A DNA stretch of 62,269 bases, counting the filler. It is 5 parts of 5 records of this genome, joined end to end, with 100 filler letters (N's around TTAATTAATTAA, not from the genome) between each part and the next. Parts side by side here need not be neighbours in the genome. Positions count along the whole stretch, not along the records: positions 21,707 to 30,125 come from SRR2962707_4360; 4 more parts are not named here. One strand, 5' to 3'. Positions 9,644 through 55,901 of the stretch are shown here, in pieces; position 1 is the stretch's first letter; each line of letters starts with the position of its first letter. The notes beneath the pieces were generated by a model, which was not told the origin of the DNA, searched no databases, and saw only the letters and a program-made list of their open reading frames with translations. Position numbers and translations under genes: made by a program.

Positions 9644-10930
9644 TTACTTACGGCCCAAAAGGCCCATCAAAGACGACAGACCCGCCTTCTTGCGTTTCTT
9701 CACTTCCGCTCTGCCGGTCACCACATGGGCGATCTGGGACAGCGCTTCAGCGGTTGGCGATCTGGCCGAGGATTCAGCAATCATCAAACCGGAATTCGCC
9801 GCTTCACCAAACAGCGGAGCATCGAAAGGAATGATCGCAAGAGGATCAATTTCCAACGGATCGCAGAACGCCTCGGGAGAGATCTCAGGCCGCTTGGCCA
9901 TTCCCACCTGATTGAGAACCAGAAGCGGCGCATGATCATTCGGGCGCAGCTTGCGCAAGGTGTCGAACAGGTTCTTGGTGTTGCGCAGATTGGCCAGATC
10001 CGGGGTTGCCGTGATGACAATCTCGTCAGCGGCGCAAAGCACCTTACGGGTCCAGTCATTCCACATATGCGGCACATCAAGCACCGAAACGGGCGCGTTG
10101 CGCTGAATGATGTCGAGGATCGGCAGGAATGCGTCACCTGAAAAATCGTAGGTCCGGTCCAGCATGGACGGCGCCGCAAGCATGGAAAGATGCTCGGAGC
10201 ATTTTGACAGCAAACGGTCGAGAAACACTTCATCGAGGCGGTCGGGCGAATACACCGCCTCGGCGATGCCCTGTGTCGGATCGGTATCGAAATTGAGATT
10301 TGCGGTCCCGAAAGCCAGATCGAGGTCGGCCAGTATGACCTCGCTGGAAAACAGGCTGGAAATGCTCCAGGCGCAGTTGTGAGCGAGAGTGGAGGAGCCA
10401 ACGCCGCCTTTCGCGCCGACAAAAGCGATCGAGCGGCCCAGCGGCGCTGCGTCCGGATCGACAAAGATTGTCGAGATGACACCGATCACATCGGCCATGG
10501 AGACAGGCGCAACAATGTATTCGGAGACGCCATTGCGCACCAGTTCACGGTACAAGGCGACATCATTGACATGACCGACGATAACCACTCGCGTGTCGGG
10601 ATCACACACAGTTGCAAGTTCACCAAGCTCGTCCAGCAGGGCCTGGCCTTCGACGCGGGTCTCCAGGATCAGAAGATTGGGTGTCGGCGAGCCCGCGAAC
10701 ATGTTTGCCGCGGCCGATACGCCGCCGGAATTGATGCGCAGGTTGACCTTGGCCATGCGGCGGTCCTGAGAGCACCGTTCCATGGTCTTGGCCATGCTTT
10801 CGGTTTCGACGAAGGCATGGACAGAAATACGCGGCAGAGGGCGAATCCGCTCGAAATCACCTCGTTCCGGGGCGGTGTCGCCGTTATCGGACTGGGTTTG
10901 CTGCTCAAGCGCATAATCAAGATTGGTCAT
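9644..10930 (-). CDS. cpaE: Pilus localisation protein CpaE/TadZ (receiver + ParA/MinD-like)
   Basis: GHVNDVALYREL, GAKGGVGSST, DLDLAFGT. Confidence 0.92.
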   Translation of the reverse strand: MTNLDYALEQQTQSDNGDTAPERGDFERIRPLPRISVHAFVETESMAKTMERCSQDRRMAKVNLRINSGGVSAAANMFAGSPTPNLLILETRVEGQALLDELGELATVCDPDTRVVIVGHVNDVALYRELVRNGVSEYIVAPVSMADVIGVISTIFVDPDAAPLGRSIAFVGAKGGVGSSTLAHNCAWSISSLFSSEVILADLDLAFGTANLNFDTDPTQGIAEAVYSPDRLDEVFLDRLLSKCSEHLSMLAAPSMLDRTYDFSGDAFLPILDIIQRNAPVSVLDVPHMWNDWTRKVLCAADEIVITATPDLANLRNTKNLFDTLRKLRPNDHAPLLVLNQVGMAKRPEISPEAFCDPLEIDPLAIIPFDAPLFGEAANSGLMIAESSARSPTAEALSQIAHVVTGRAEVKKRKKAGLSSLMGLLGRK

Positions 10931-10973
10931 GAACGTTGTCCTGCTTCTAAGGGCGCATTGCGGTTTGGTCTGG

Positions 10974-13243: not shown

Positions 13244-14052
13244 TAGTTGGTGGCGCCAACTTTGGTGATGGTGCCGGAGCGGATCAGCTGGATGGCTGCA
13301 CTGCCGTCTTCGCCGCTCAATAGATATTTTGCGCCATCGCTGTCAGGTTCCTGAACGTCGGCGACACTGCGCAAGGCGAGTGTCAACCGATCGGCCATCT
13401 GCTGCGCGACGGTGATGATTTTTGTCTGTTCCGGCGTCAATTCGAGGGTTGCCGTGGTCCCGACTGCGGTCCGGCTTCCATCGGCGTTCTCTTCAATGCG
13501 CTGGTCGATGGCCAGAATACGGATGTTGGACAGGATGACCTCGGTCAGAAATCCCTCTTCCGCAGTCTTGCGACGGACCATGATCACATCCACCCGGTCG
13601 TTGGGGAGGATGAACCCGCCGGCGCTGGTGGCCACCGAGATTTCCGTTGCGATCGCGCGCTTTCCGGCCGGAAGCAGCGAGGACATGATCCGGGATGACG
13701 AATCGACGATCTTTTCGGTGCGCAAGGGTTCTCCGGCAAACAGCGGAAGCCTGACAACCACACCGGCGAGTTCGGCTATTGCTTCGGGACGGTTGTCACG
13801 ACGGATCAGTCCTTCGATCACGCCATCTTCCGGCCAGCCTTTCCACTCCAGCGAATCTTCACCCAAACGCGCGCCAACCGGCAGGTTGGCGGTTGTCACC
13901 AACACATCAATGGTCGGCATCTTCTCGATGATCGGGTCTGAGGAGACTTCTGTCACCTGGACGGTGGGTGACGTCAGGTTCATGGCCAGATACCCGGCCA
14001 ATCCTGCGGCCAGACCTGCCACTGACATGATGACGACGCGGGCGGTTTTCAT
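13243..14052 (-). CDS. cpaB: Flp pilus assembly protein CpaB/RcpC
   Basis: SAF domain, GKRAIA, GGFILPNDRVDV, TATLELTPEQ. Confidence 0.92.
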   Translation of the reverse strand: MKTARVVIMSVAGLAAGLAGYLAMNLTSPTVQVTEVSSDPIIEKMPTIDVLVTTANLPVGARLGEDSLEWKGWPEDGVIEGLIRRDNRPEAIAELAGVVVRLPLFAGEPLRTEKIVDSSSRIMSSLLPAGKRAIATEISVATSAGGFILPNDRVDVIMVRRKTAEEGFLTEVILSNIRILAIDQRIEENADGSRTAVGTTATLELTPEQTKIITVAQQMADRLTLALRSVADVQEPDSDGAKYLLSGEDGSAAIQLIRSGTITKVGATN

Positions 14053-14337
14053 ACTGTTTCCTCGAACGGATATTGGGTACGCTGGAAGCAGAATGCATTG
14101 GCAATCGTGTAATTATGGTTAATGACCCGGTAGCAAACACGGTTAACGCAAAATTACCGACGTAAAAGCAAAGGCCGTTCCCACGTGAGCATGATGGTCG
14201 GAGCACACCTCTGGCTTCCGCCGTGCAGGACGCCAAACGCCGCGCGTTCGGCTGAACACGCGGCGTTTGCTGCTATTACGGTCTCATGATCGGCGCTTGG
14301 GTTTGGCGGCAAACCAGCCAGTGTCAGCTGCCCTGGT

Positions 14338-17419: not shown

Positions 17420-18364
17420 TCAGGGCAGCCTGGCTGCTGATTGCCGCTCGGGCATGGCTTCAACCAGACCGCGGATATTGTGGTATTCTTCCTGGTCCGG
17501 AATGACATAGCCGCCGCCATAGGCAGGCTCGAAAATATCAAGCAGGCCCGGCGCTGATGTCGCCATTTCATCAAGAAACACGCCGAGCGCCTCGACCAGA
17601 TCATCAGGCAGAGACCGGTTTGCGGCGTGCGGGCCATAAGGGATGCGCTGTGAAGACCAGATGATCCTGAGCGGTTCAGCGCTCTCGATAGCGGTCCGGT
17701 TCCAGCCTCCGAACAACCTTTCCAGTCCGACGCCAGCGTCTCCGGGAATATCGGGCAACCAGCCGAAAAACCCGTCAATTTCACCAGCCTTGTAAAGCGC
17801 CATGACGGAGCCGACGCTGCCTCCGCGAACCAGCGTTGGCATGTCCAGACTGCCGGCCGTTATGGCCTGGTGAGGAATTTGCCAGCCGGATACCGATGTT
17901 TCGTCGGAGTAACCGACTTTAAGCTCGGCGACAGGGACGGTGACACTGTCGCGCGCCACAAGCACCGACCTGAAACCGGTGGAGCCATCAGCGGCAACAG
18001 GGATACGAAAAGCCCTGACGCATCCGCAGGCCGCCTGTGTTGCCGCAAATGATCTGGCTGAATGGATAGCATAGCCAACACGGCCGCTGGCGTGAGCATC
18101 GATCAAGGCCGCATAGCTGCCGAGCTTGATGATTTCAACGGGGATGCCCAGGGCGTTTGCAAACGCAAGCTGGATCGCTTCGAGTTTGACGGGATCAGTT
18201 GCCGCAACATGGGTTTCCACCATACCGATGCGCAACACTGCAATCGAATCCCGATAGTCTGCTTTGGCCGTTCCGGCCCAGACCATGGCGCAGCAAAGTG
18301 CCGCCCAGCCTGGTCCCCGAAGGCATCCCGCAAATCTGACAATGCGATCCATCATACCCATCAC
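17420..18364 (-). CDS. PhnD-like phosphate/phosphonate substrate-binding protein (no cognate permease here)
   Basis: Signal peptide; YAALIDA, GFRSVLVAR, SVSGWQIP, LRIIWSSQRIPYGP resemble the PhnD family. Confidence 0.7.
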   Translation of the reverse strand: MMGMMDRIVRFAGCLRGPGWAALCCAMVWAGTAKADYRDSIAVLRIGMVETHVAATDPVKLEAIQLAFANALGIPVEIIKLGSYAALIDAHASGRVGYAIHSARSFAATQAACGCVRAFRIPVAADGSTGFRSVLVARDSVTVPVAELKVGYSDETSVSGWQIPHQAITAGSLDMPTLVRGGSVGSVMALYKAGEIDGFFGWLPDIPGDAGVGLERLFGGWNRTAIESAEPLRIIWSSQRIPYGPHAANRSLPDDLVEALGVFLDEMATSAPGLLDIFEPAYGGGYVIPDQEEYHNIRGLVEAMPERQSAARLP

Positions 18365-20980: not shown

Positions 20981-21606
20981 ATGGACGGCGTTACAGTCAT
21001 CAACCACCCACTGGTGCAGCACAAGCTTACCATCATGCGCAAGAAGGAAACCTCGACAGCAGGTTTCAGACGGCTGTTGAGAGAGATTTCCACCCTGTTG
21101 TGCTACGAAGTCACCCGGGATCTCGAGTTGACAATGGAGACCATCGAAACCCCGCTGGTCGAAATCGAAGCGCCGGTTCTTGAAGGCAAGAAACTGGTGT
21201 TTGCCTCGATCCTGCGCGCCGGCAACGGCTTGCTGGAAGGCATGCTGGATCTGGTCCCTTCGGCGCGCGTTGCCCACATCGGCGTCTATCGCGATCACGA
21301 AACGCTGGAAGCCATCGAATATTATTTCAAGGCACCCGAGGATGTCAGCAACCGGTTGATCATCGTTGTCGACCCGATGCTTGCCACCGGCAATTCGTCG
21401 ATCGCCTCGATTGACAAGCTGAAAGAGCGCGGCGCCCGCAATATCCGGTTTCTCTGCCTTCTTGCAGCGCCTGAAGGCCTGCGCAATTTTCAGGCCGCTC
21501 ATCCGGATGTGCCGATCTACACCGCCTCGATCGACAGCCATCTCAATGAACAGGGCTATATTGTTCCCGGCCTGGGCGATGCCGGCGACCGCATGTACGG
21601 CACCAA
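20981..21606 (+). CDS. upp: Uracil phosphoribosyltransferase (stop codon cut off by contig end)
   Basis: [34 protein letters not shown]. Confidence 0.96.
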
Positions 21607-21706
21607 NNNNNNNNNNNNNNNNNNNNNNNNNNNNNNNNNNNNNNNNNNNNTTAATTAATTAANNNNNNNNNNNNNNNNNNNNNNNNNNNNNNNNNNNNNN
21701 NNNNNN
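21607..21706. other. Artificial contig linker
   Basis: 44 N + TTAATTAATTAA (stops in all six frames) + 44 N. Confidence 0.98.
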
Positions 21707-21735
21707 CAGGTGTTCGAGTCACCTATGCGGCACCA
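21707..21735 (+). repeat. att core, left copy (tRNA T-arm + acceptor 3' strand + CCA)
   Basis: CAGGTGTTCGAGTCACCTATGCGGCACCA, identical to 30097-30125. Confidence 0.92.
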
Positions 21736-21801
21736 TATAAATCATTGAAATTTATAACGTTTTTCACTGCGCGGTTTTTGCACCATCAGCGGATGATGCT
21801 T

Positions 21802-22155: not shown

Positions 22156-23268
22156 CTATGATGCGAGCGTCCGAAGATAGGCAACCACCTGGGCTACAGT
22201 TTCGGCGTCGGGTTCTCCCGTTTTGCTTTTGTCCGGCGCGGCCTGCTGGGTCCAGAGCTCGTTCATGATTTGGCTTTGGCGGTGGGCGGACACGGCGCCG
22301 TAGCTGGTCAGTGTCGTCAACACCTGCTCGTGACCAAGGTTCTGGCTCCAGGACTTGAAGTCCTCAGTAGTGCGGCAGATGCGTTCGCCTAACAGCGCCA
22401 AGGTACTGCGGAAGCTGTGCGGGTTGAAATAGGGCAGCCCCGCTGACTCGAAGGCCGTCTTGAAGATGCGGCGGATGGCGGACGCATCCTTCCAGTGCTG
22501 GCGATCAAGACCAAGAGCCTCAAAGTGGCCGCTGGGGCCAAGGCCGACGCGGGTGGACGGAAACAGCGGATCATCGGGGCCGAACAGCTGTGTGTCTGTC
22601 AGTTCGTTGATCCAGTCGGCAACGATCTGCTCGAACTCTGCACCGACCGGGAAAAACCCCGAGACAAAGCTCTTGCGCGCCTTGGTCCGGACGGTCCGGG
22701 CATCCTGATCGACCGTGCGGCGAGCTAGGTTGATGTGGCGCAGAGACAGCGAGGCGATGGCATCGTCGCGCGCCCCGCTGAGCAGAGCAAAGGCGAACAC
22801 AGCGCGATCACGCCGCTGGAGGATAGTTTCAATCGGCATGGCCAAGAGGGCGTGCAGGATCTGTTCAATGCTGGGGACGGGCCGCTGCCGTGATGCGCCA
22901 GCGATCCGCGCATCATTGGCGCTGGTGTTGAAATAGTCGGCGTCGGAATAGGTGATCTTGGATTTGTAGCCCGGCTGGCCAGCGAGCCATTTGAAGAATG
23001 CCTTCAGCGCCATCAGGCGTGAATGGATGGTGGCGGTGGCCAAGGGCTTGCCGGTGGAGCTATTCTTCATCTCCTGCAACTGGCGCTTGAACTTGCGTGC
23101 CTGCTCAAGATGGAATTGCTTGAAATCACGGCAACCAGTGCCCTGCTCAAACAAGGCGATGGCTGCTGCGACCTGGTCAACGGAAGACGATGCCATGCGA
23201 TTGGCCTCTTCCAGATAGGTCAGGTATTTGCGCTTGATCCGCTCATTGTCGGGGTGATGCTTAGACAT
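22156..23268 (-). CDS. Tyrosine recombinase without an obvious arm-binding domain
   Basis: LSGARDD (R), RTK (K), PHSFRS (HxxR), NLGHE, TSYG (Y). Confidence 0.9.
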   Translation of the reverse strand: MSKHHPDNERIKRKYLTYLEEANRMASSSVDQVAAAIALFEQGTGCRDFKQFHLEQARKFKRQLQEMKNSSTGKPLATATIHSRLMALKAFFKWLAGQPGYKSKITYSDADYFNTSANDARIAGASRQRPVPSIEQILHALLAMPIETILQRRDRAVFAFALLSGARDDAIASLSLRHINLARRTVDQDARTVRTKARKSFVSGFFPVGAEFEQIVADWINELTDTQLFGPDDPLFPSTRVGLGPSGHFEALGLDRQHWKDASAIRRIFKTAFESAGLPYFNPHSFRSTLALLGERICRTTEDFKSWSQNLGHEQVLTTLTSYGAVSAHRQSQIMNELWTQQAAPDKSKTGEPDAETVAQVVAYLRTLAS

Positions 23269-23761
23269 GGTTGTCAGGCTCCTTGGGGTGGGTCTCATTC
23301 AGGCAGGGTGTGGTGCTATCCTTTAGGTGTTCGATGCCATCCGGGGCCGACACATCCAGAATCCGCCGCAGGGCCATCAGATTGGCCAGCCCAGTGCGCC
23401 TGTGCATGAGGGTGGAGCACTCCGGGCAGATCGCCCGGAGGTTGCCGCTGGTGGGCGTCATCGGCAGATACTCAACCATCAGACCGGCCGGCACGCGGGG
23501 TTCGCGGCATTTGACGCAGAAGCATTCATTCGGCTGACACTTGCGACCCTTGCGCGGCTGGCGCTGGTGATAGGCAATCAGCTCAGACCCCAGGATTAGG
23601 GCAGGCTTCTGGTCGGTGATTGCCGGTAGGCCATCCTTGATCCAGCGCCGGACGGTGATCTCAGCTACGCCGAGCGTGCGCGAGACCTCGTCCACTGTGT
23701 AGTTACGGTGGCGCTTGATGCGCTGCCAGTTCGGCTTGCGGGAAGCCACTGCGCTAGCCAT
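23261..23761 (-). CDS. HTH (excisionase/MerR-like) plus zinc-ribbon protein
   Basis: YTVDEVSRTLGVAEITVRRWIKDGL HTH; CVKC...CPEC Cys pairs; overlaps both neighbouring genes. Confidence 0.8.
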   Translation of the reverse strand: MASAVASRKPNWQRIKRHRNYTVDEVSRTLGVAEITVRRWIKDGLPAITDQKPALILGSELIAYHQRQPRKGRKCQPNECFCVKCREPRVPAGLMVEYLPMTPTSGNLRAICPECSTLMHRRTGLANLMALRRILDVSAPDGIEHLKDSTTPCLNETHPKEPDNHV

Positions 23762-23969
23762 TGTCCGAGGTGGAGGTGCGCTTGTGCGCGGCCAGCCAGT
23801 TGTCGAGGTCATCCTGATCATAGACCACGACGCGACCAACCCGCATGTAGGGGCAGCCGCCGCCATGCACACGGAGCTTTTCAAGGGTCGATTTGGCAAG
23901 GCCTGTATAAATGGCCGCATCACGGGTCCGCAGTTTGCGGCGGTGGTTCTGGGGGGCGGGGGTGTTCAT
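23754..23969 (-). CDS. AlpA/excisionase-like HTH protein
   Basis: LRTRDAAIYTGLAKSTLEKLRVHGGGCPYMRVGRVVVYDQDDLDNWL. Confidence 0.88.
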   Translation of the reverse strand: MNTPAPQNHRRKLRTRDAAIYTGLAKSTLEKLRVHGGGCPYMRVGRVVVYDQDDLDNWLAAHKRTSTSDNG

Positions 23970-24045
23970 CTGGCAAGTCTCCGGCAAGCACCGGATTGGC
24001 GCTGCATCTGGAGCGAACTTGCGGAAGCTGATGGAGAGAGCGGGC

Positions 24046-24092
24046 GCCAAACCGTCCATTTGGCAGTTGGCGTAATTTGGCGCGTTTTGGCG
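24046..24092. promoter_or_regulatory. Phased TTGGCG repeats upstream of the alpA-like gene
   Basis: TTGGCG at 24067, 24077 and 24087 (10-bp period), TTGGCA at 24060, inverted CGCCAA near 24046. Confidence 0.5.
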
Positions 24093-24095
24093 CGG

Positions 24096-25829
24096 CTATT
24101 TGGGTTTTAGCGCACGCAAAACCGTGGTCGCGGAGACTGGGCTACTGCCGTTCTTGGCGTGCCAATGATTGATGGTAATGAGTCGTTGCTTGATAGCCAG
24201 GCCCTTCGGTGGACCCGAAGGATAGCACTCTGCCAATGCCTGCCGTGTTGCAGCGAGTTTGTCGGCCTTGCGTCTTTTCCGCGTCCCTGAGGGAACAGGG
24301 GACCCGGCCGAAATAGCCATATGTGCACCCGTGAACTCAGGAAACTGGTTCAACAGCGGATCGCGTTTAATTTGGATACCAAACCACCGCGGCTTGTCCT
24401 CTCCAAACGCGGTGAACTGGCCGCCATAGCCTTTCAAAATGTCATCGATGAAGCTCACATAGTGACGTTCTCGAAACTGCTCGGGATCTGTCGTGGCCAG
24501 TTCCCAATAGGGGGCGGGGATGATTTCTCGCACGCGTTTGTGGTTCAACCCTGTGGCGCCAAGCTTTTCGCGGAACAGCGCGTCGAACAGAATCTCAGCT
24601 CCCCTGTCATCGAGGTCAGCACCGGCAATCTCGGCGGAGGACAAGACTTGCCCCTTGCAGCCCACCCATTGTGCCGCTTCCCATAGGGTCCAGTCTGGAT
24701 TGGCGAGATCAAAGGCCGGTGTGATGGTCTCGTCACTTACCGGCGGCCAAAGGCCGATTACAGCAGAGCGCAGGAAAGTTAGTTCGGTGTAAGCGGCCTT
24801 TAGGCTGACCGAACGCTGGATGACGTAGTCGGCCCCTTTCAAGTTCCCTGCCAGCTCAAGATAGGGCCATTTGTGGGCAGGGATCTGCACCGCCTCTCCA
24901 GCGGCGTCGAGCCCGGTTGCGCTGATTGAGCCTTCAGCCAGATATCGCCACAAGTCCTCCCGTGCACTTTTCACCGAAAGCACTTTCGTCTCTTTGTCCG
25001 CGTCGAGAGCCTCCAGCATTCCAAGCTCCGAAAGAGAACTTGCATCAAGGGAACGCAGCTCTGCACCTTCGGCGAACCACCAGTCTGCGCCGCCGTCCAG
25101 TGGCACCCTGCAATTTGTTGGGAACCACTCCCAACACTCGGTCCGATATGCCGTCCAGCTATCGCGAACCGCATCAACAGTACGCATCGAGATCCAGGCG
25201 ACTGTCATGGCGAGAGACCAGACCGGCTCCGCCATTGGGTTGAATCTGGAAGCGGGCGGCGAGGTAGCGAACGGACGCAGTCCCCATTTTGCCGCTGATG
25301 CCTCGGCTTCCTTCGCCGGAAGGACGCCGTCCATGACCAGACCGATTAGACAGTCTCGCAGCGCAAACACCGGCGGGAGGTCTCGGCCGCGCGGATTTTT
25401 AACTTTTGATTTGAGCTGGGCGAGCCACGCATCAAGCTGGCCACGCCGGATGATCGGTGTTCGCTCTGCGATGGCATCCCAATAGTCTCCGTGGCCGGCC
25501 CCAATCTCGGAAGCGAGAAAAAACCGCTCGGGAAAGAACGCTGTCGTCCATTCCTGCGGCGGAATGGCGAAGTGTTCTGCTGAACCCGGTTCGCGTACTA
25601 GCGCCTCAAGTTCGCCGTGGGCAAACGGCCGAATGAACTCGGCGAGCTGGGCATTGGTCACTGCATCGAGCTCAGCAATCTGCCTTGTCACAACAGACGG
25701 GGGAAGTTGAGAGATCAGAATGGCGGGCCGCAGTTCCGCAACGGGCGATCCGCCGTTCCAGAGTAAATCATGGAACAGGTCAAAGGCAGCAGTGAGGGAG
25801 ATGTAACCTTCGGGGATCAAATCGACCAT
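24096..25829 (-). CDS. Hypothetical ~577-aa protein with three internal repeats and a C-terminal HTH-like end
   Basis: Long ORF with three copies of a SL/TLxxAxxW...LxA(T)G...IPxxxW...R pattern; ends in VSATTVLRAL. Confidence 0.75.
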   Translation of the reverse strand: MVDLIPEGYISLTAAFDLFHDLLWNGGSPVAELRPAILISQLPPSVVTRQIAELDAVTNAQLAEFIRPFAHGELEALVREPGSAEHFAIPPQEWTTAFFPERFFLASEIGAGHGDYWDAIAERTPIIRRGQLDAWLAQLKSKVKNPRGRDLPPVFALRDCLIGLVMDGVLPAKEAEASAAKWGLRPFATSPPASRFNPMAEPVWSLAMTVAWISMRTVDAVRDSWTAYRTECWEWFPTNCRVPLDGGADWWFAEGAELRSLDASSLSELGMLEALDADKETKVLSVKSAREDLWRYLAEGSISATGLDAAGEAVQIPAHKWPYLELAGNLKGADYVIQRSVSLKAAYTELTFLRSAVIGLWPPVSDETITPAFDLANPDWTLWEAAQWVGCKGQVLSSAEIAGADLDDRGAEILFDALFREKLGATGLNHKRVREIIPAPYWELATTDPEQFRERHYVSFIDDILKGYGGQFTAFGEDKPRWFGIQIKRDPLLNQFPEFTGAHMAISAGSPVPSGTRKRRKADKLAATRQALAECYPSGPPKGLAIKQRLITINHWHAKNGSSPVSATTVLRALKPK

Positions 25830-26160
25830 GCGCAGATGTTTGCCCAAGCGTAAGTCTGACTCAAGCGGAGATCGCCACAAAAATTCAATTGCTTTTTGCC
25901 TTAGACGCGGACGTCTTTCGGACCGTCGTCCGTGTCGGTGCGACTACTGACGTCACGCGTCCGCATTGGTCCGATGTGGGCGAGATCTGCAGCTTATCCA
26001 CAGACTGCACGACGGTGAGCAGTAATTGTTGAGCATGTCACGTTCCCGTGAGAGCTTGTCGTTAACGGATTGGTAATGAGCGATTTGATGGAGGACGCCA
26101 CATGCGCTTTGTTTATCAGCGCTCTACTGCGCGCGCCAACGCCATGGCAGATCAAGGCTG

Positions 26161-26753
26161 ATGGCGCTAGATGGGGAGAGCGCAGCAGCCGAGGCAGGTG
26201 ACGGCGCGCGTGCCGCGACCGGTTCGGCACTAAAGATATTTCAGGCTCGTCAGCAGGAAGACATTCTCGCCGTCCGCGACATCACGCTCGAATACCACGC
26301 CGAGAGCCGCTACGCGCATATCCTCTTTTCGGAACGTAAGTTCATCCGCCTCTTCTCCAAGGCGATCAGCAATCCCAGTGACACGCTGGCGCTCTATGTG
26401 CAGCACAATGGCAGGACGGTCGGCCTGCTCAATGCCGGCGCTGGCGACTACTATTCGGCGAGGGCGGCAGGATGGTCACCGTCTATGCGCTCTATGTCTC
26501 CAAGGCCGTCCGCGCCACGACGCTGGGCGGCCGCATCACCATCAAGCTGCTGCGGATATTGAATGACTGGGCCAAGGCGCAGAAGGCCGAGGAAGTGCAT
26601 GTGCATGTGACGTCAGGGGTGCAGCCGGAACGCACGGACCGGCTGCTGAGACGACTGGGGTATCGGACGTATGGGGGGAATTATGCGGTCAGGGGGGCAC
26701 AGGAAGTCGTTGAAGGCTCTGGCAACGGTTTTCTGTCGCGCCCCACACCATGA
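26161..26753 (+). pseudogene. GNAT-family acetyltransferase with a 1-nt frameshift near 26455
   Basis: First frame ...EYHAESRYAHI...VGLLNAGAGDYY; second frame GEGGRMVTVYALYVSKAVRATTLGGRITIKLL...WAKAQKAEEV...RLGYRTYGGNY. One added base joins them. Confidence 0.75.
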
Positions 26754-26780
26754 ATATTAATGTTCCGAAGGCAGAAGACC

Positions 26781-27248
26781 ATGTCTAGACAGAATCCCAC
26801 GCAGATGGCGAAGGGCGGATGGCTGTTGGCAGTAGCAACCTTTTTGCTCTTTCTGTCGGCGTGCGCACAGGTACCTGTGGAGCCCAATAGTCCCTACTTC
26901 AAGCGATTGATTGCGGCGGCCGAGACCAACAACAATGCACCGGTCGAACTCCTAGAACCACGTTCGTCGCGTCACGAATCTAGCATTATTCAAGACCTAA
27001 TTGGCGACGGCTTTGAGCCTCAGACAAGCAGCGGCGAGTCAAGACACCGCCTGGGACACATTGTCTGTGAGGGAATCTCCCTTGTTAGGGTGTCAGGGGA
27101 AGGCGAAACTCCAACGTATTTTGTTCGTCTCTTGTGGGGCGGACCATTGACTTTACCGCCATTCACGGTGTTCGGCATCGACGTCTATCGAGATGAGAGC
27201 TGTGCAGTAACGAGAATCGTGGGCGCTAAGCGTCTGCAAGCAATATAG
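26781..27248 (+). CDS. Putative lipoprotein (cassette A)
   Basis: Hydrophobic leader WLLAVATFLLFLSAC ending in a lipobox; start codon uncertain (26760/26781/26805). Confidence 0.65.
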   Translation: MSRQNPTQMAKGGWLLAVATFLLFLSACAQVPVEPNSPYFKRLIAAAETNNNAPVELLEPRSSRHESSIIQDLIGDGFEPQTSSGESRHRLGHIVCEGISLVRVSGEGETPTYFVRLLWGGPLTLPPFTVFGIDVYRDESCAVTRIVGAKRLQAI

Positions 27249-27271
27249 TGGAATATGGGACATGGGCACGC

Positions 27272-27361
27272 TCAGGGGTGCAGCCGGAGCGCACGGACCG
27301 GCTGCTGCGGCGACTGGGGTATCGGACGTATGGGGGGAAATATGTGGCAATTATCGAATGA
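27272..27361 (+). repeat. Second copy of the GNAT 3' end
   Basis: 27272-27347 matches 26613-26688 at 71/76 nt; reads SGVQPERTDRLLRRLGYRTYGGKYVAIIE*. Confidence 0.92.
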
Positions 27362-27454
27362 CCTTCTCACAACACCTCGTTGGCTAGCGTTAAAGTTGGA
27401 ATCGCCAGGCGCTGATCCGGTTCTAAAAAGAGAAATCGCGACGAAAGAAGAAAG

Positions 27455-27999
27455 ATGCTGAGACGATTGTTTTCTGCGTTCATCTCCTTGATACTTCTTG
27501 TTGGGCCCACGCCATTGGCCTTCGAAATCGATCTAGTTTGCCCTGACCTGTCGGAGATGTTATCAACCTCAGAAATTGCACTATCAACAACCGTCAAGTC
27601 CGTGACGGCCTACGGCGTCCTAAGGCAGTCGGCCTATGGGCTCGAAAGCGCTTCGCGAGGGACTTCTCGTATGTCATCACCGTTGAATCCGTCTTGAAAA
27701 CGCACAAGTCTCCCCGCGATTGGTGGGTCGCCGAACCTTCTGTGCTTACGTTCTCAGCGTGTCCAAACTGCTCCGCCGAGGACGCACTTGAATTCGCCGC
27801 TACGGCTGGATCTAGACGATTGCTGCTGGGTAGTCGGCCTTCACTGCCGGGTCTGCTTGGCATTCCAGCGGCATTAACGAGCCTTGAGCTTTCGTTCGAT
27901 GTCGTGGGTGGGAGCGTTTGCGCCGACCTTCAGATCGATCCGTCGGGCGCAAGTGCCGCAATCGAAGCAGCCTTGGGCGGCAAGATTGGGCTCAACTGA
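27455..27999 (+). pseudogene. Putative secreted protein, frameshifted (cassette B)
   Basis: Signal peptide MLRRLFSAFISLILLVGPTPLA; the alternate frame DFSYVITVESVLKTHK continues into ORF 27694-27999, implying a shift at ~27620-27655. Confidence 0.55.
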
Positions 28000-28154
28000 T
28001 CCGCATGGTCTGCGACTGGGCCAAGGCGCAAGGCGCCGAAGAACTGCACATTCACTCAACATCCGGTATTGACCCTGAGAGGACCGATAAGCTGCTAACG
28101 CGGCTTGGGTTCAAGGCCTATGGCGGAAATTACGCGGTGAGGCTGGAGAATTGA
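27973..28154 (+). repeat. Third, diverged copy of the GNAT 3' end
   Basis: LGGKIGL-(1-nt gap)-LIRMVCDWAKAQGAEELHIHSTSGIDPERTDKLLTRLGFKAYGGNYAVRLEN* aligns with LGGRITIKLLRILNDWAKAQKAEEVHVHVTSGVQPERTDRLLRRLGYRTYGGNYAVR. Confidence 0.88.
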
Positions 28155-28441
28155 ATAGAGATGAGATTAGGCAAAGTACGGTATTAAATTTTGGCAGGTT
28201 GTCATTATTGGTGGCTTTTTTTATCGTTGCGTTTGTCTTGACTGCAATTTCTCCTAAAAATATTGCAATTTATATTGTTCCAGCGGGACTTATATCTGGG
28301 CTGGTGTTGATTTTTACTGCGCTTGGAAATTTTAATTACATTTTTAACTACAGGATGCCGGATTTAGAAATTCCAGCAGACATTGGGATTCGGGAGCGCT
28401 TCTTGTTCAAGTTTGTTGTTGCGGAGCTTGTCGATGACTGA
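28151..28441 (+). CDS. Small two-TM membrane protein, AT-rich (cassette C)
   Basis: Two hydrophobic segments; TTG start overlaps the TGA of GNAT copy 3; visibly AT-richer than its flanks. Confidence 0.6.
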   Translation: MNRDEIRQSTVLNFGRLSLLVAFFIVAFVLTAISPKNIAIYIVPAGLISGLVLIFTALGNFNYIFNYRMPDLEIPADIGIRERFLFKFVVAELVDD

Positions 28442-28621
28442 TGCTACCAGAACTGTAAAAGAGGCTGGATTCTACGGCCAGATGGCGCCTTGGGGAAAAT
28501 GTGTAGATTGGCTTGGTTCTGCCGATGGGCAGTATTCAGGATGGGTGAAGGGCTTTACAATGGCGCATATTTGCCGCCTGAATGTCGAAGAAAGTGGAAC
28601 CTCTTCGAGCCCCAGCGCACT

Positions 28622-29911
28622 TTACTTCCGGTCATTTAGCATCAAGACCTTGGCCTCATGCTTCGGCTCGCCCATGGCCGCTGCAAGACCAGTTCCAATG
28701 GTATTGGAAGCCTTCCGCACCGGATCCGCGTCGAGGTGAGCATAGCGGGCGGTCGTCTGTGGTTGAGTATGCCCGAGCAACTTTCCGATTATCGGGAGGC
28801 CCATTCCACCGCCAGCACCAAAGGCAGCGAAGTTGTGTCGTAGGTCATGGAGACGGAGGCCGTCGAGTTTGGCGTGTCGGGTGACCACCGCCCAGGGGCG
28901 CTTTAGGTCCGAACGGGGGCGCTCGCTTTCGGTTCCTGCGCTGTCGCCCGCAATGACGTACTTTCCGACTCGGCTCAGGCCATTGAGTACGGTCAAGGCT
29001 GGCGCATTAAGTACGATAGTTTTTTTGCCAGTCTTGGAATCCGGCAAGAGCAGCAGACCTCTTTCGAAATCAACATGTTCCCATTCGAGGTGTAAGATTT
29101 CACGGAGGCGTGCGCCGGTGAAAATGAGCAAACGTAGAGCTGCAGCTGCGTGCTCCCCAATGACAGTTTCTCGTTTCTCCTTTCTGAGGTGCTTGGTCCT
29201 CTTCTCGGGGTCAATGTGCCATGGAACGCCAATTGTCTCGGCCTCACGGATGGCACGGCCCAAACGGTCCAGCTCTTCTGACGAAAGGAAGCGTTCTCTG
29301 TGTTCCTCGCGGTACTTGTCGATCCCCCGTGCTGGATTCTGTTCGGCATCGAGCAATCCGCGCCGGAATGCGAAGCCGAACATTGAGCTGATGATTGCAA
29401 CCGTTCGATTGGCCTGAGCGGGGGTCTCTCTCATTTTTAGGTGGAGTCGCGCCACATCAGCGCGCTTCACGTCCTTCGCCTTCTTGGCTCCCAATGCAGG
29501 AACGATCCAGACGCGCATAACGCCGTCGTAGCTTGTCTTGGTCCCTGCCTTGCGTTTGGCTCCCACGTGTTCCCAGAGGAACATCTCGGCCAGTTCGGCT
29601 ACTGTGAGCGCTTTCCTCTGTTGTTCCTTCTGCGCTTGTGGGTCGGCCCCCATGTTCACCATGGAACGGAGACGCTGAACCTCAGCTCGCGCCTCTTCCG
29701 GAGTGAAGCGTTTGCTTGAACCGATCGTCACCCTTTTTTTGGGTGCGCGGCGCCCACCCTCGCCGGCGCGATACTCATAGATCCACGACTTTTGGCCGGT
29801 GGGTGAAACACGTAACCCAAAGCCGCTGATCTCGGTGTCGAATAGCGTGTAACGCGCCTGAGCGGGAAGTGCGGCGTCAACGGATCGCTTGGTGAGTTTG
29901 GCAATGGGCAT
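28622..29911 (-). CDS. P4-like tyrosine integrase with N-terminal arm-binding domain
   Basis: N-terminal DTEISGFGLRVSPTGQKSWIYEYR...RVTIG; FTGARLRE, DSKTG, LHDLRH, LLGH, TARYAH. Confidence 0.95.
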   Translation of the reverse strand: MPIAKLTKRSVDAALPAQARYTLFDTEISGFGLRVSPTGQKSWIYEYRAGEGGRRAPKKRVTIGSSKRFTPEEARAEVQRLRSMVNMGADPQAQKEQQRKALTVAELAEMFLWEHVGAKRKAGTKTSYDGVMRVWIVPALGAKKAKDVKRADVARLHLKMRETPAQANRTVAIISSMFGFAFRRGLLDAEQNPARGIDKYREEHRERFLSSEELDRLGRAIREAETIGVPWHIDPEKRTKHLRKEKRETVIGEHAAAALRLLIFTGARLREILHLEWEHVDFERGLLLLPDSKTGKKTIVLNAPALTVLNGLSRVGKYVIAGDSAGTESERPRSDLKRPWAVVTRHAKLDGLRLHDLRHNFAAFGAGGGMGLPIIGKLLGHTQPQTTARYAHLDADPVRKASNTIGTGLAAAMGEPKHEAKVLMLNDRK

Positions 29912-29928
29912 GTTTGCTCCCGTCCTCG

Positions 29929-29962
29929 CTGGGCGCCACCTGGGCACCACTGGGGCGCCACC
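29929..29962 (+). repeat. Putative integrase arm-type sites, right end
   Basis: Three tandem GGGCRCCAC units: CTGGGCGCCACC TGGGCACCAC TGGGGCGCCACC. Confidence 0.65.
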
Positions 29963-30079: not shown

Positions 30080-30125
30080 ATTCGTAATGATGGGGTCAGG
30101 TGTTCGAGTCACCTATGCGGCACCA
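30080..30125 (+). tRNA. 3' half of tRNA-Thr(CGT); an att fragment, not a complete tRNA
   Basis: Anticodon loop TT-CGT-AA, T-arm AGGTG-TTCGAGT-CACCT, ATGCGGC-A-CCA; the upstream sequence cannot form the 5' half. Confidence 0.8.
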
Positions 30126-30225
30126 NNNNNNNNNNNNNNNNNNNNNNNNNNNNNNNNNNNNNNNNNNNNTTAATTAATTAANNNNNNNNNNNNNNNNNNN
30201 NNNNNNNNNNNNNNNNNNNNNNNNN
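30126..30225. other. Artificial contig linker
   Basis: N44-TTAATTAATTAA-N44. Confidence 0.98.
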
Positions 30226-30250: not shown

Positions 30251-30467
30251 GTCTGACTGTGCGAATATCACCGATGAAGGTAGAAAGCGACTGCGTACCA
30301 CAGGAAAGTGCTGCTTCTGTCGTGCGCAAAAATCCGTCTTTTTTTGTTGTTGTTGTTACTTTTTATTATTGTCGTTCAGTCTCGCCCAACACGCCGCGCT
30401 TTGCCTGCTTGCTCGGCGTGTCCCCAACCCGCAAAAACAAACGTCTCTCGGCGTAGTCCAAGGCGCA

Positions 30468-31884
30468 ATGGCCGCTCCACACGCCCTAAACTCGCCCAGA
30501 TCCCAGTCATCCCGTCCCTCCCCTGCTGCTGAAATTGCTGATCCAGCTCCAGCTCCTGCTGCTCCAATTCCTGCTTCGGCGTCTTGCGATCGAGCTCGGC
30601 ACACGCCGTTGTCGCACTTTTTTCGGTCGGTTCTGGCAGGTGGCTTCGCCTCCACGATCGCAAAGACTGCAGTCGCCCCAGGTGAGCGGGTGCGGATCAT
30701 CCTCCAGACTCGCTCTCTCTTCGCCGGTGGCTCGTCGAGCGGAGCTTCCTCGTCTTCTGCTGCAGCCGCTCGGCAGGCGGCTTCGGGCGACGGTGTTCTT
30801 GCCCTAGTGCGTCATATAGTCTCGTCTGAGAAAGGTGGGGTACGAGCGTTGTGGCGCGGAAACTTGGCCAATTGCTTACGGTCTTTCCCGAGCTACGCCC
30901 TTCGATTCAGTTTGTTTGATAGGCTACGAGCTGCGACCCCAGATTCGTTTCACAATTCTTTCGGCGGGGCCTTGCTGCTAGGGGCCTTTTCGGGGGCGAC
31001 CACGACGTTCGTCACCTACCCGTTGGACCTGATTCGCACGAAAATGTCGGTCGACTCCATCGCTGCAAACTCGTCCGCTGCATCCAATGTGAAGTCAGAC
31101 ACGAGGTCAGTCCGTAGTGTCTCGGCCGAGCAGGAGAGAAGAGAATCCCCATCTCGCGCGGCCGTTTGGTTTTTCGCGCGAATCCTCCTTCCCGTGTCTA
31201 CCGTGTTGCTTGTTTTCATTCATTTGCATTCATTTATTATTGTGCATGTGACTGCCGGCATGGTGATTCGCAGGCACCGGGGGATGGTGCATCATGCTGC
31301 GGCCACTTTTCGTCGTGGAGGGTTTTGGGGTTTGTACCGCGGCCTGACCATGAGCATCATCGAAATCATGCCATACACGGCGATATCGCTCGGCGGGTTA
31401 GTTTGCACAAGCCATTCGGAGTTATCCTGAAAACCCATTGCGGTCGTGCAAACCATGCCATTCGCGGTCGTGCAAAGTGGTTGTTGCGTGACGCACTCAA
31501 CTGGTAAACTTACTTCGTTGTGGAACTTTGTTGTTGCGTAGATATGACTTTGCAAAGACTTTCATTGTTGGGCACCGCCAAGATCAGTCACCCCCAGGCG
31601 TCATCCAGAAGCTTGCCGTAGGTTGGAGTGCGGGACTCACTGCATCGCTTGTGTGCTATCCGCTGGACACAATCAAGCGCCACGTGATGCTGGAGACCGC
31701 GGACGTTGGAGCTGGAGGCAATCTCACAGATTCACCCATCTTGCGCCACACGCGCGCTATTTTTGCCCGCCATGGACTTGGTGGTTTTTACCGAGGATGT
31801 CTGGTGAATGCCGTCAAGTCTGCTCCTGCAGCAGCAATCGCCCTTGTGGCCAACGACACGTTGAAGCAACTTTGTGGTCTGTAG
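30468..31884 (+). CDS. Eukaryotic mitochondrial carrier (SLC25; CoA/adenine-nucleotide-like group), 3 exons, ~367 aa
   Basis: Exons 30468-31105, 31274-31396, 31542-31884 with GT..AG introns; three carrier motifs (APGERVR, YPLDLIRTK, YPLDTIKRH) plus LWRGN, LYRG, FYRG. Confidence 0.88.
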
Positions 31885-49307: not shown

Positions 49308-49407
49308 NNNNNNNNNNNNNNNNNNNNNNNNNNNNNNNNNNNNNNNNNNNNTTAATTAATTAANNNNNNNNNNNNNNNNNNNNNNNNNNNNNNNNNNNNN
49401 NNNNNNN
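49308..49407. other. Artificial contig linker
   Basis: N44-TTAATTAATTAA-N44. Confidence 0.98.
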
Positions 49408-55801: not shown

Positions 55802-55901
55802 NNNNNNNNNNNNNNNNNNNNNNNNNNNNNNNNNNNNNNNNNNNNTTAATTAATTAANNNNNNNNNNNNNNNNNNNNNNNNNNNNNNNNNNNNNNNNNNN
55901 N
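55802..55901. other. Artificial contig linker
   Basis: N44-TTAATTAATTAA-N44. Confidence 0.98.

Follow-up and report, generated by a model that had tools for sequence, protein, structure and literature searches.

A decaying array of GNAT 3' ends and small envelope-protein genes in a tRNA-Thr islet, and its relation to a hypervariable Hint-RTX locus of Hyphomicrobiales

In the orphan arrays of contact-dependent inhibition (CDI; cdiA-CT/cdiI) and Rhs systems, modules stand in tandem and in one orientation, a conserved piece before each variable module provides homology for recombination, the modules are of foreign composition, and immunity genes can be kept without toxins, including in an immunity-only islet of S. 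Typhi (parts of PMC9086364). Here we analyse an array with such likenesses in a 62,269-nucleotide (nt) stretch of joined contigs, referred to below as the window. At positions 26161 to 28441, within contig SRR2962707_4360, a GNAT-family gene and two further copies of its 3' end are each followed by a different small gene, all on the + strand. The explanation that we narrowly favour is that the array consists of stacked orphan modules, each made of a GNAT 3' end and an immunity-like envelope gene, and that it is a toxin-less, decaying mirror image of the CDI, Rhs and Maf orphan arrays. It differs from the CDI and Rhs arrays in that what is conserved is the 3' end of a GNAT gene, a separate gene lying upstream, and not the pre-toxin region of the toxin, and in its reversed polarity, with a variable N-terminus and the immunity-like gene upstream; secretion, too, is different and is here probably of type I. 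For the CDI and Rhs arrays, the CDI review cites Poole 2011 and Koskiniemi 2014.

Neisseria maf islands (mafB-CT/mafI) likewise have a BIL (Hint) domain at the border between conserved and variable parts, and their orphan cassettes keep part of the BIL (parts of PMC4287609). In MafB, however, the variable part is C-terminal to the BIL and the immunity gene comes after it, whereas here the Hint domain comes after a variable N-terminus and the small gene before it; maf islands also contain no GNAT. BIL domains are known to occur in hypervariable parts of bacterial proteins (parts of PMC7765530), and Zhang et al. 2012 describe HINT as lying immediately ahead of C-terminal toxins, the term 'T1SS' not being found in the available portion of that text (PMC3482391). 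In RTX operons (hlyCABD, rtxC-rtxA), as here, a small gene with an acyl- or acetyl-transferase fold adjoins a C39-ABC exporter gene and a giant RTX gene, but our GNAT has no HlyC match, and the nearest solved folds among the Foldseek matches listed are classical acetyl-CoA GNATs. RTX proteins have many functions, and rhizobial RTX bacteriocins in Hyphomicrobiales, RtxC acyltransferases and a few RTX proteins with weak Hedgehog/intein homology are already known (parts of PMC3034196).

Two further kinds of array invite comparison. Integron cassette arrays also hold small, mostly unknown genes in one orientation near a tyrosine recombinase, but the present array has no IntI, no attC and no fixed boundary. 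Tandem 3' fragments of tRNA genes, left by serial island integration, resemble it in that repeated 3' ends of the target gene mark successive acquisitions, and the islet that carries our array is itself such a case at tRNA-Thr; unlike those fragments, the GNAT remnants are 63-93% identical, of unequal lengths and not bounded by recombinase core sites. A literature search of titles and abstracts in a limited collection found no description of a GNAT-anchored array or of an N-terminally polymorphic Hint-RTX locus.

A GNAT gene, two 3' remnants and their cargo

The window is made of five contigs separated by spacers of the form N44-TTAATTAATTAA-N44 at 21607-21706, 30126-30225, 49308-49407 and 55802-55901, and the array lies in the second contig (21707-30125); contigs that stand side by side in the window are not genomic neighbours of the array. 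The resident GNAT-family gene (26161..26753, + strand) is full length but frameshifted, with one base missing between 26454 and 26455, as shown by three-frame translation and by tblastn with P0003, a full-length member of the family, which recovers it as two pieces in different frames (26161-26454 and 26457-26690). A repeat search found a 76-nt stretch of this gene (26613-26688, the reference) in two more in-register copies, at 27272-27347 (93%, 71/76) and 28062-28137 (63%). The first belongs to a middle remnant (27272..27361, +) that runs to its stop codon, covers positions 146-181 of the family hidden Markov model (HMM; 184 positions) and has sharp homology borders in the alignment. The second belongs to a distal remnant (27960..28154, +; model positions 121-182), which is 63% identical to the resident gene in nucleotides and approximately 58% in amino acids (aa) and carries an internal frameshift near 27997. 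Both are also found by tblastn with P0003, at 27230-27355 for the middle remnant (E 1.9e-9) and at 27951-28139 for the distal one (E 2.5e-19, with 56% aa identity over 63 residues), and according to the HMM both retain the 3' end and lack the 5' part. The repeat search, tblastn, the HMM and the open reading frames (ORFs) thereby confirm the layout given in a preliminary description of this DNA, which had reported, all on one strand, the GNAT gene, cargo A, the 71/76 copy, cargo B, a more diverged copy and cargo C. Its observation that divergence rises with distance from the resident gene holds in the window and fails in the parallel array of a related genome, G010, where the remnant farthest from the resident gene matches it at 94% identity.

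Cargo A (26781..27248, +; the start may be 26760 or 26781) is a predicted lipoprotein of 155 aa with 54% GC, its lipobox LSAC having been read by eye. It is an ORFan: no Pfam or PHROG family was found, an Atlas search gave no match at 0.9 or above, and a homologue search returned only its own 99% cluster. Cargo B (27455-27697) is followed by an ORF that was absent from the preliminary description, B2 (27694-27999), which sits between B and the distal GNAT copy. Together (27455..27999, +) they represent one ancestral ORF, which would encode approximately 180 aa with a hydrophobic N-terminus and is broken in two here by the loss of a G after 27658; no family was found for it. The possibility that B2 is a divergent N-terminal half of a GNAT was ruled out (hhalign probability 0.3). 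Cargo C (28151..28441, +) encodes 96 aa with two hydrophobic segments, has 38% GC and starts in overlap with the stop codon of the distal remnant; it is an ORFan as well, with only its own cluster in the homologue search. An NCBIfam search gave no match for the GNAT, the cargo, a transposase-like fragment in G010 or a 594-aa protein of the islet (both described below), and a consensus scan for promoters and terminators gave sites no more numerous than in shuffled sequence.

The same layout is present at 99.3-99.5% identity in loci of other assemblies, namely L005, L006 and, for the first part of the array, the partial locus L004, and one 7173-nt contig of sequencing run X1 covers the whole of 25900-28700 with the same gene order. 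These copies also document decay, which the preliminary description had overlooked. The one-base lesion of the resident GNAT gene is common to the window, L004, L005 and L006 and disrupts the family motif DYYLGEGG; a further 1-nt deletion at 26667 occurs in L005, L006 and contigs of runs X1 and X7. In run X8, by contrast, the missing base is present and the gene instead lacks 13 nt at 26283 and 8 nt at 26665, so that the GNAT gene has been inactivated independently in different lineages and is frameshifted in every copy seen. No intact catalytic GNAT protein was found in the window, as the frameshift is present in all four assemblies and the remnants lack strands beta1-beta4. Among the cargo, the G after 27658 that joins B and B2 is present in L005, L006, X1 and X8 and missing in the window, while the upstream part of B/B2 has 4-nt and 9-nt deletions in L005, L006 and X1. 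The array is thus decaying and is not an active site-specific collector.

Assignment of the family to the GNATs draws on several searches. The PHROG_1249 acetyltransferase profile is matched at 6.4e-14. Pfam Acetyltransf_1 gives 19.5 bits for P0003, against a cut-off of 20.7, and no match for the two halves of the resident gene, and it is matched by 51 of the 78 members of the wider family (E <= 0.01; best 1.9e-10). The family profile matches solved GNATs, for instance 1z4e at 1.9e-6. An AlphaFold model of P0003 built from the 78 sequences reached a pLDDT of 89.5, superseding an earlier model from nine close sequences (pLDDT 46.5), and has the topology beta1-alpha1-alpha2-beta2-4-alpha3-beta5-alpha4-beta6/7; the top PDB matches listed in a Foldseek search with it are all GNATs (probability 1.00). 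The modelled fold is that of the GNAT superfamily. On this model the start of the distal remnant falls at the loop that leads into helix alpha3 and that of the middle remnant close to strand beta5, and neither is predicted to be able to fold alone. An HlyC/RtxC-type acyltransferase was rejected as a candidate, with no HlyC match for family members at E <= 10, nor among the 78 members. Close GNAT homologues number 10 proteins, and an exhaustive search among representatives yielded 284 at E <= 0.001. Within the best 150 of these 284 representatives of the C-terminal part, 75 are 155-215 aa long and 49 fall below 130 aa; among the short ones listed, many begin with an unrelated N-terminal lead-in, followed by the C-terminal part of a GNAT. 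No GNAT relative was found in viral contigs.

Recurrence in relatives and the Hint-RTX locus

A six-frame search with the family profile found the GNAT in 15 of 243 Devosiaceae genomes and in 20 of 401 sampled genomes of the order. Counting only pieces outside frameshifted whole genes, there are 14 remnants that hold the 3' end alone (six in Devosiaceae, six in the order and the two in the window), four clear pieces that are 5' or internal only (two and two) and two weak, ambiguous matches. All 3' remnants extend to model position 180-182, and their 5' ends are ragged (92, 93, 96, 98, 121, 129, 130, 130, 141, 146, 146, 155, 157 and 159). The arrangement of an anchor fragment followed by a variable gene is recurrent and not a one-off: G010 has one GNAT gene and two 3' remnants, G286 one GNAT gene and a remnant 3.3 kb downstream, G031 a frameshifted GNAT gene and a partial copy, and G002 three full GNAT modules on one contig, and the envelope-protein genes downstream differ among these arrays. 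No recombinase lies within the arrays of G010, G286 or G031.

Behind all 13 remnants examined (of the 14) stands an ORF with a hydrophobic segment, a signal or a lipobox. The Kyte-Doolittle criterion is satisfied behind 12 of them, one more having been judged by eye, compared to 27 of 76 background ORFs. The start of the small gene abuts or overlaps the GNAT tail, the cargo genes are low in GC, and the cargo proteins are mutually unrelated except for three pairs; a Pfam scan above cut-off left 25 of 26 cargo proteins without a match, the remaining one being DUF2927. With 3' remnants outnumbering 5' pieces and an envelope gene constantly present, the data suggest that the small gene and its GNAT tail are the part being kept.

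Some of these relatives have further peculiarities. Both GNAT remnants in locus L043 (G010:C20; 8009-8462 and 9348-9744) are fusions with the beginning, ~48 codons, of a transposase-like ORF, which has no family match and which we take to be RAYT/IS200-like. In L044 (G031:C6), 300-nt direct repeats (93%) at 13976-14275 and 17753-18052 enclose the broken GNAT array, and ABC-ATPase-like fragments are repeated nearby. In L059 (G291:C11; 3000-6150), behind a lone GNAT remnant, ORFs with three transmembrane (TM) segments alternate with proteins of 462 and 156 aa that are alike at their N-termini, forming repeated modules of another kind.

In Devosiaceae and other Hyphomicrobiales, a hypervariable locus has this GNAT gene as its conserved left border. 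The order is the GNAT gene, sometimes preceded by a C39-ABC type I exporter gene (directly upstream in 3 of 10 loci inspected), then one or two variable low-GC envelope genes and, last, the gene of a giant RTX protein. Of the 14 full GNAT genes examined, 10 have a large Hint-domain ORF downstream, and Pfam gives weak PT-HINT and Hint matches on the large downstream ORFs. Two of the giant proteins exceed 2800 aa and carry RTX repeats, at 7.8e-79 (a 3295-aa protein) and 1.8e-46. In the Hint-bearing proteins the first 130-300 residues are unalignable, after which, from the motif CFPAxT on, identity is 43-63%, and the variable part ends exactly at the catalytic Cys of the conserved, presumably self-cleaving Hint/BIL domain. 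This type of Hint occurs in 14 of the 243 family genomes, 10 of the 14 being among the 15 genomes that bear the GNAT. Giant Hint genes also exist without the GNAT: L061 (G109:C4) and L062 (G222:C1) have a low-GC lipoprotein ORF or an ORF with four TM segments immediately upstream, and in L062 an orphan-like Hint ORF of 507 aa adjoins the main gene.

The extent of the variable unit is clearest in G002. Its main module consists of the GNAT, two small TM genes and the 3295-aa protein, and in each of two further modules a full GNAT is accompanied by a small TM gene and by a short ORF that breaks off within the Hint domain. Between these two orphan-like modules, homology extends over 673 nt (83%) to a point just short of the GNAT stop codon and reappears for 80 nt inside Hint, indicating that the variable unit is the small envelope gene or genes plus the 5' end of the giant gene, between the GNAT 3' end and Hint. 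Three hallmarks of polymorphic toxin loci can be compared with these observations. A sharp border between a conserved region and a variable domain attached to it is seen in the relatives only; a small variable gene is present at the place of an immunity gene, a likeness of position (TM, secreted or lipoprotein ORFs between the GNAT and the giant gene); and orphan modules with a piece of the conserved flank exist, as truncated Hint in G002 and as GNAT remnants in the window, G010, G031, G286 and others. One variable N-terminal domain, that of G503, provides a lead towards a toxin: it resembles phospholipase A2 (PLA2) (Atlas 0.94, 27 of 30 matches; Pfam PF08398 at E 0.011, below cut-off), and its upstream partner is a lipoprotein of 306 aa. 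Searches with the other variable domains yielded no significant match. Presumably the G503 pair is comparable to phospholipase effectors with lipoprotein immunity.

Origin of the array and competing explanations

If, as we infer, the N-termini of the giant proteins are toxins against which the small envelope proteins give immunity, the array in the window can be understood as a stack of orphan modules. Such modules could result from divergent modules recombining at the GNAT border, from deletions that would remove the toxin-like 5' part of the giant gene together with the 5' part of the next GNAT, or from both. The first route would involve homologous exchange on the GNAT side and an illegitimate join on the right; the second would be deletion within tandem full modules such as those of G002. 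The distal remnant is 58% identical in aa to the resident gene, as against 65-71% to the copies in G010, G031 and G241, and each cargo in the window has a distinct GC content, which together indicate that the modules probably have different origins and were stacked, and were not duplicated and diverged in place. Identities are also mosaic. In G010, the two remnants share 98% identity over the 230 nt that precede them and 84% in their GNAT parts, and between X8 and the window the GNAT region differs at 34 of ~650 positions, compared to 4 of ~1370 downstream; the anchors thus do recombine. The preliminary description had compared the array to the orphan immunity arrays of polymorphic toxin loci and had proposed serial capture of modules inside the GNAT gene. 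The comparison and the stacking gain support from the locus type in relatives and from the mixed origin of the modules, while an integron-like mechanism of capture is not supported. The proposed order of newest first, and integration into the GNAT gene, are possible, and deletion within tandem full modules, which are intact in G002, would yield the same picture.

Several observations weigh against the stacked-orphan explanation. No variable N-terminal domain reaches a Pfam cut-off, the best being PLA2-like at 0.011, SprT-like at 0.11 and SLT_2 at 0.12, and no cargo protein falls in a known immunity family. The window contains no Hint or RTX remnant (tblastn, none below E 0.03), so the link to the toxin-like locus rests on the relatives. 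The GNAT is not obligatory, being absent from 4 of the 14 Hint genomes (of three GNAT-less Hint loci inspected, two still have a small envelope ORF upstream), and 4 of the 14 full GNAT genes have no Hint downstream. Cargo A and C have no homologues outside their own clusters, hydrophobicity on the Kyte-Doolittle scale is a crude criterion, the run data are contigs, which mask rare variants, and many of the genomes are metagenome-assembled. Finally, insertion and deletion would both fit and would both give ragged 5' ends.

A wider proposal, which we put forward tentatively and would not yet back against the alternatives taken together, is that the locus is an undescribed polymorphic effector system. 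The GNAT 3' end would be its left anchor for recombination and perhaps expression, the giant protein would be exported by type I secretion, its N-terminal toxin would be freed by Hint/BIL, immunity genes would lie upstream, and tRNA-targeting islets would ferry immunity-only arrays between marine strains.

The most serious competitor to stacked orphan modules is an account without toxin or immunity biology, which we regard as rather unlikely. On this account the giant Hint-RTX proteins would serve as adhesins or surface proteins, to which the small envelope proteins would be anchors or partners unless they are products of unrelated 'moron' genes, and the array would be recombinational debris, the functionless wreckage of tandem modules on a mobile islet. 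Many giant RTX proteins are indeed adhesins, no toxin or immunity family was matched at cut-off, the cargo genes are ORFans, and the array decays in all lineages. Such debris accounts less well for variability that is confined, with sharp borders, to the N-terminal domain and the adjacent small gene, for the existence of orphan-like modules with truncated Hint, for the retention of an envelope gene behind 13 of 13 remnants that have no toxin-like gene, and for the one PLA2-like lead with its lipoprotein partner.

That the array is an integron-like slot, in which a site-specific recombinase places cassettes of a GNAT 3' end plus a gene at a fixed site in the GNAT gene, newest first, now seems very improbable; the preliminary description had proposed an integron-like collection slot. 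The single orientation, the presence of one anchor per gene and the two tyrosine recombinases of the islet would agree with it, as would the increase of divergence with distance in the window. Site-specific recombination would, however, be expected to leave a fixed 5' boundary, and the boundaries compared are ragged, from model position 92 to 159. Neither recombinase scores as an integron integrase: the 442-aa integrase of the islet scores 27.4 bits against TIGR02249 (cut-off 265) and 18.5 against NF011946 (cut-off 435), and the 380-aa recombinase is far below every Xer and integron-integrase cut-off, neither TIGR02249 nor NF011946 being among its matches listed. There are no attC-like inverted repeats at the module ends, the arrays of G010, G286 and G031 have no recombinase inside them, the copy most similar to the resident gene in G010 is the most distant one, and frameshifts are accumulating. 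The contigs of four runs show neither joints nor variants in cassette number, although contigs can mask rare variants or small circles.

We give hardly any credence to a switching device, in which homologous recombination between the direct GNAT 3' repeats would delete cargo and so change the envelope gene behind the GNAT. A stretch of 76 nt at 93% in direct orientation could support such deletion, and the mosaic identities show recombination of the anchors; however, the four runs contain no deletion joints, the layout is identical in four assemblies, the GNAT is a pseudogene here, and a deletion, being irreversible, makes no switch. An assembly artefact that merged different strains, which might be suspected because the window is built from short contigs and the array contig ends in a repeat, can be dismissed, as the same order is found in L005, L006, the first part in L004 and the 7173-nt contig of X1.

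The islet and its wider meaning

The array occupies the cargo end of a tyrosine-integrase islet of 8.4 kb, for which tRNA-Thr(CGT) in a marine Devosia-like bacterium is the insertion site. The whole array contig matches part of L005, a 232-kb marine scaffold, at 99.5% identity over 8420 nt, and in L005 the islet is flanked by a perfect 47-nt direct repeat (2530-2576 and 10907-10953) that overlaps tRNA-Thr(CGT) at 2500-2575. An integrase, direct repeats and a tRNA target, the features of a tRNA-integrated genomic islet, are thus all present. In the window, the left end of the islet (21707..21736, +) is formed by the last 30 nt of the 47-nt att repeat, the 3' part of tRNA-Thr, and matches L005 at 10924-10953 and the left junction. 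The right end (30080..30125, +), at the terminus of the contig, consists of 46 nt of the repeat with a 100% match to L005 2530-2575 inside tRNA-Thr. Sampled words of the array stretch were found in runs of 15 studies, on marine, sediment, algal, aquifer and other samples, and several of the runs that contain the islet are labelled as single organisms and not as metagenomes.

The other genes of the islet lie on the - strand. Adjoining the right att repeat is a P4-type tyrosine integrase of 442 aa (28622..29950; Pfam Phage_integrase 6e-18 and Arm-DNA-bind_3 3.1e-17, PHROG_1 integrase 1e-56). The second recombinase, a tyrosine recombinase of 380 aa, is encoded at 22156..23298 (Pfam Phage_integrase 4.5e-10; PHROG integrase). 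Next to it, two helix-turn-helix (HTH) genes with overlapping ends (23261..24059) encode 220 and 101 aa, the shorter product being excisionase/AlpA-like (Pfam HTH_17; PHROG excisionase and regulator families); the excisionase domain TIGR01764 is found in an islet HTH gene at 5.1e-5, under the cut-off. The 594-aa ORFan protein (24096..25880) is 99.7% conserved in L005 and has no family in Pfam, PHROGs or NCBIfam.

Two observations concern the other contigs of the window. The first and second contigs both terminate in ...CGGCACCA (21591-21606 and 30111-30125), which resembles a tRNA 3' end and in the second is the tRNA-Thr att repeat. The third contig (30226-49307) has a GC content of ~51% and contains an ORF (30369-31430) with two mitochondrial-carrier repeats (Mito_carr 1.3e-32), suggesting the presence of eukaryotic DNA in the same assembly.

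Taken by itself, the window offers modest biology, with no toxin-like gene and an array in decay, and it is the wider locus type that would be the interesting part, as far as can be judged from comparison with relatives. If stacked orphan modules are the correct explanation, the logic of polymorphic toxins and orphan immunity would extend, with reversed polarity, to giant RTX proteins that Hyphomicrobiales export by type I secretion. Orphan immunity-like genes and their cognate variable domains could then be sought with a simple genomic marker, a GNAT 3' remnant with a low-GC envelope gene behind it, and small integrative islets such as the one described here could spread immunity-only sets.

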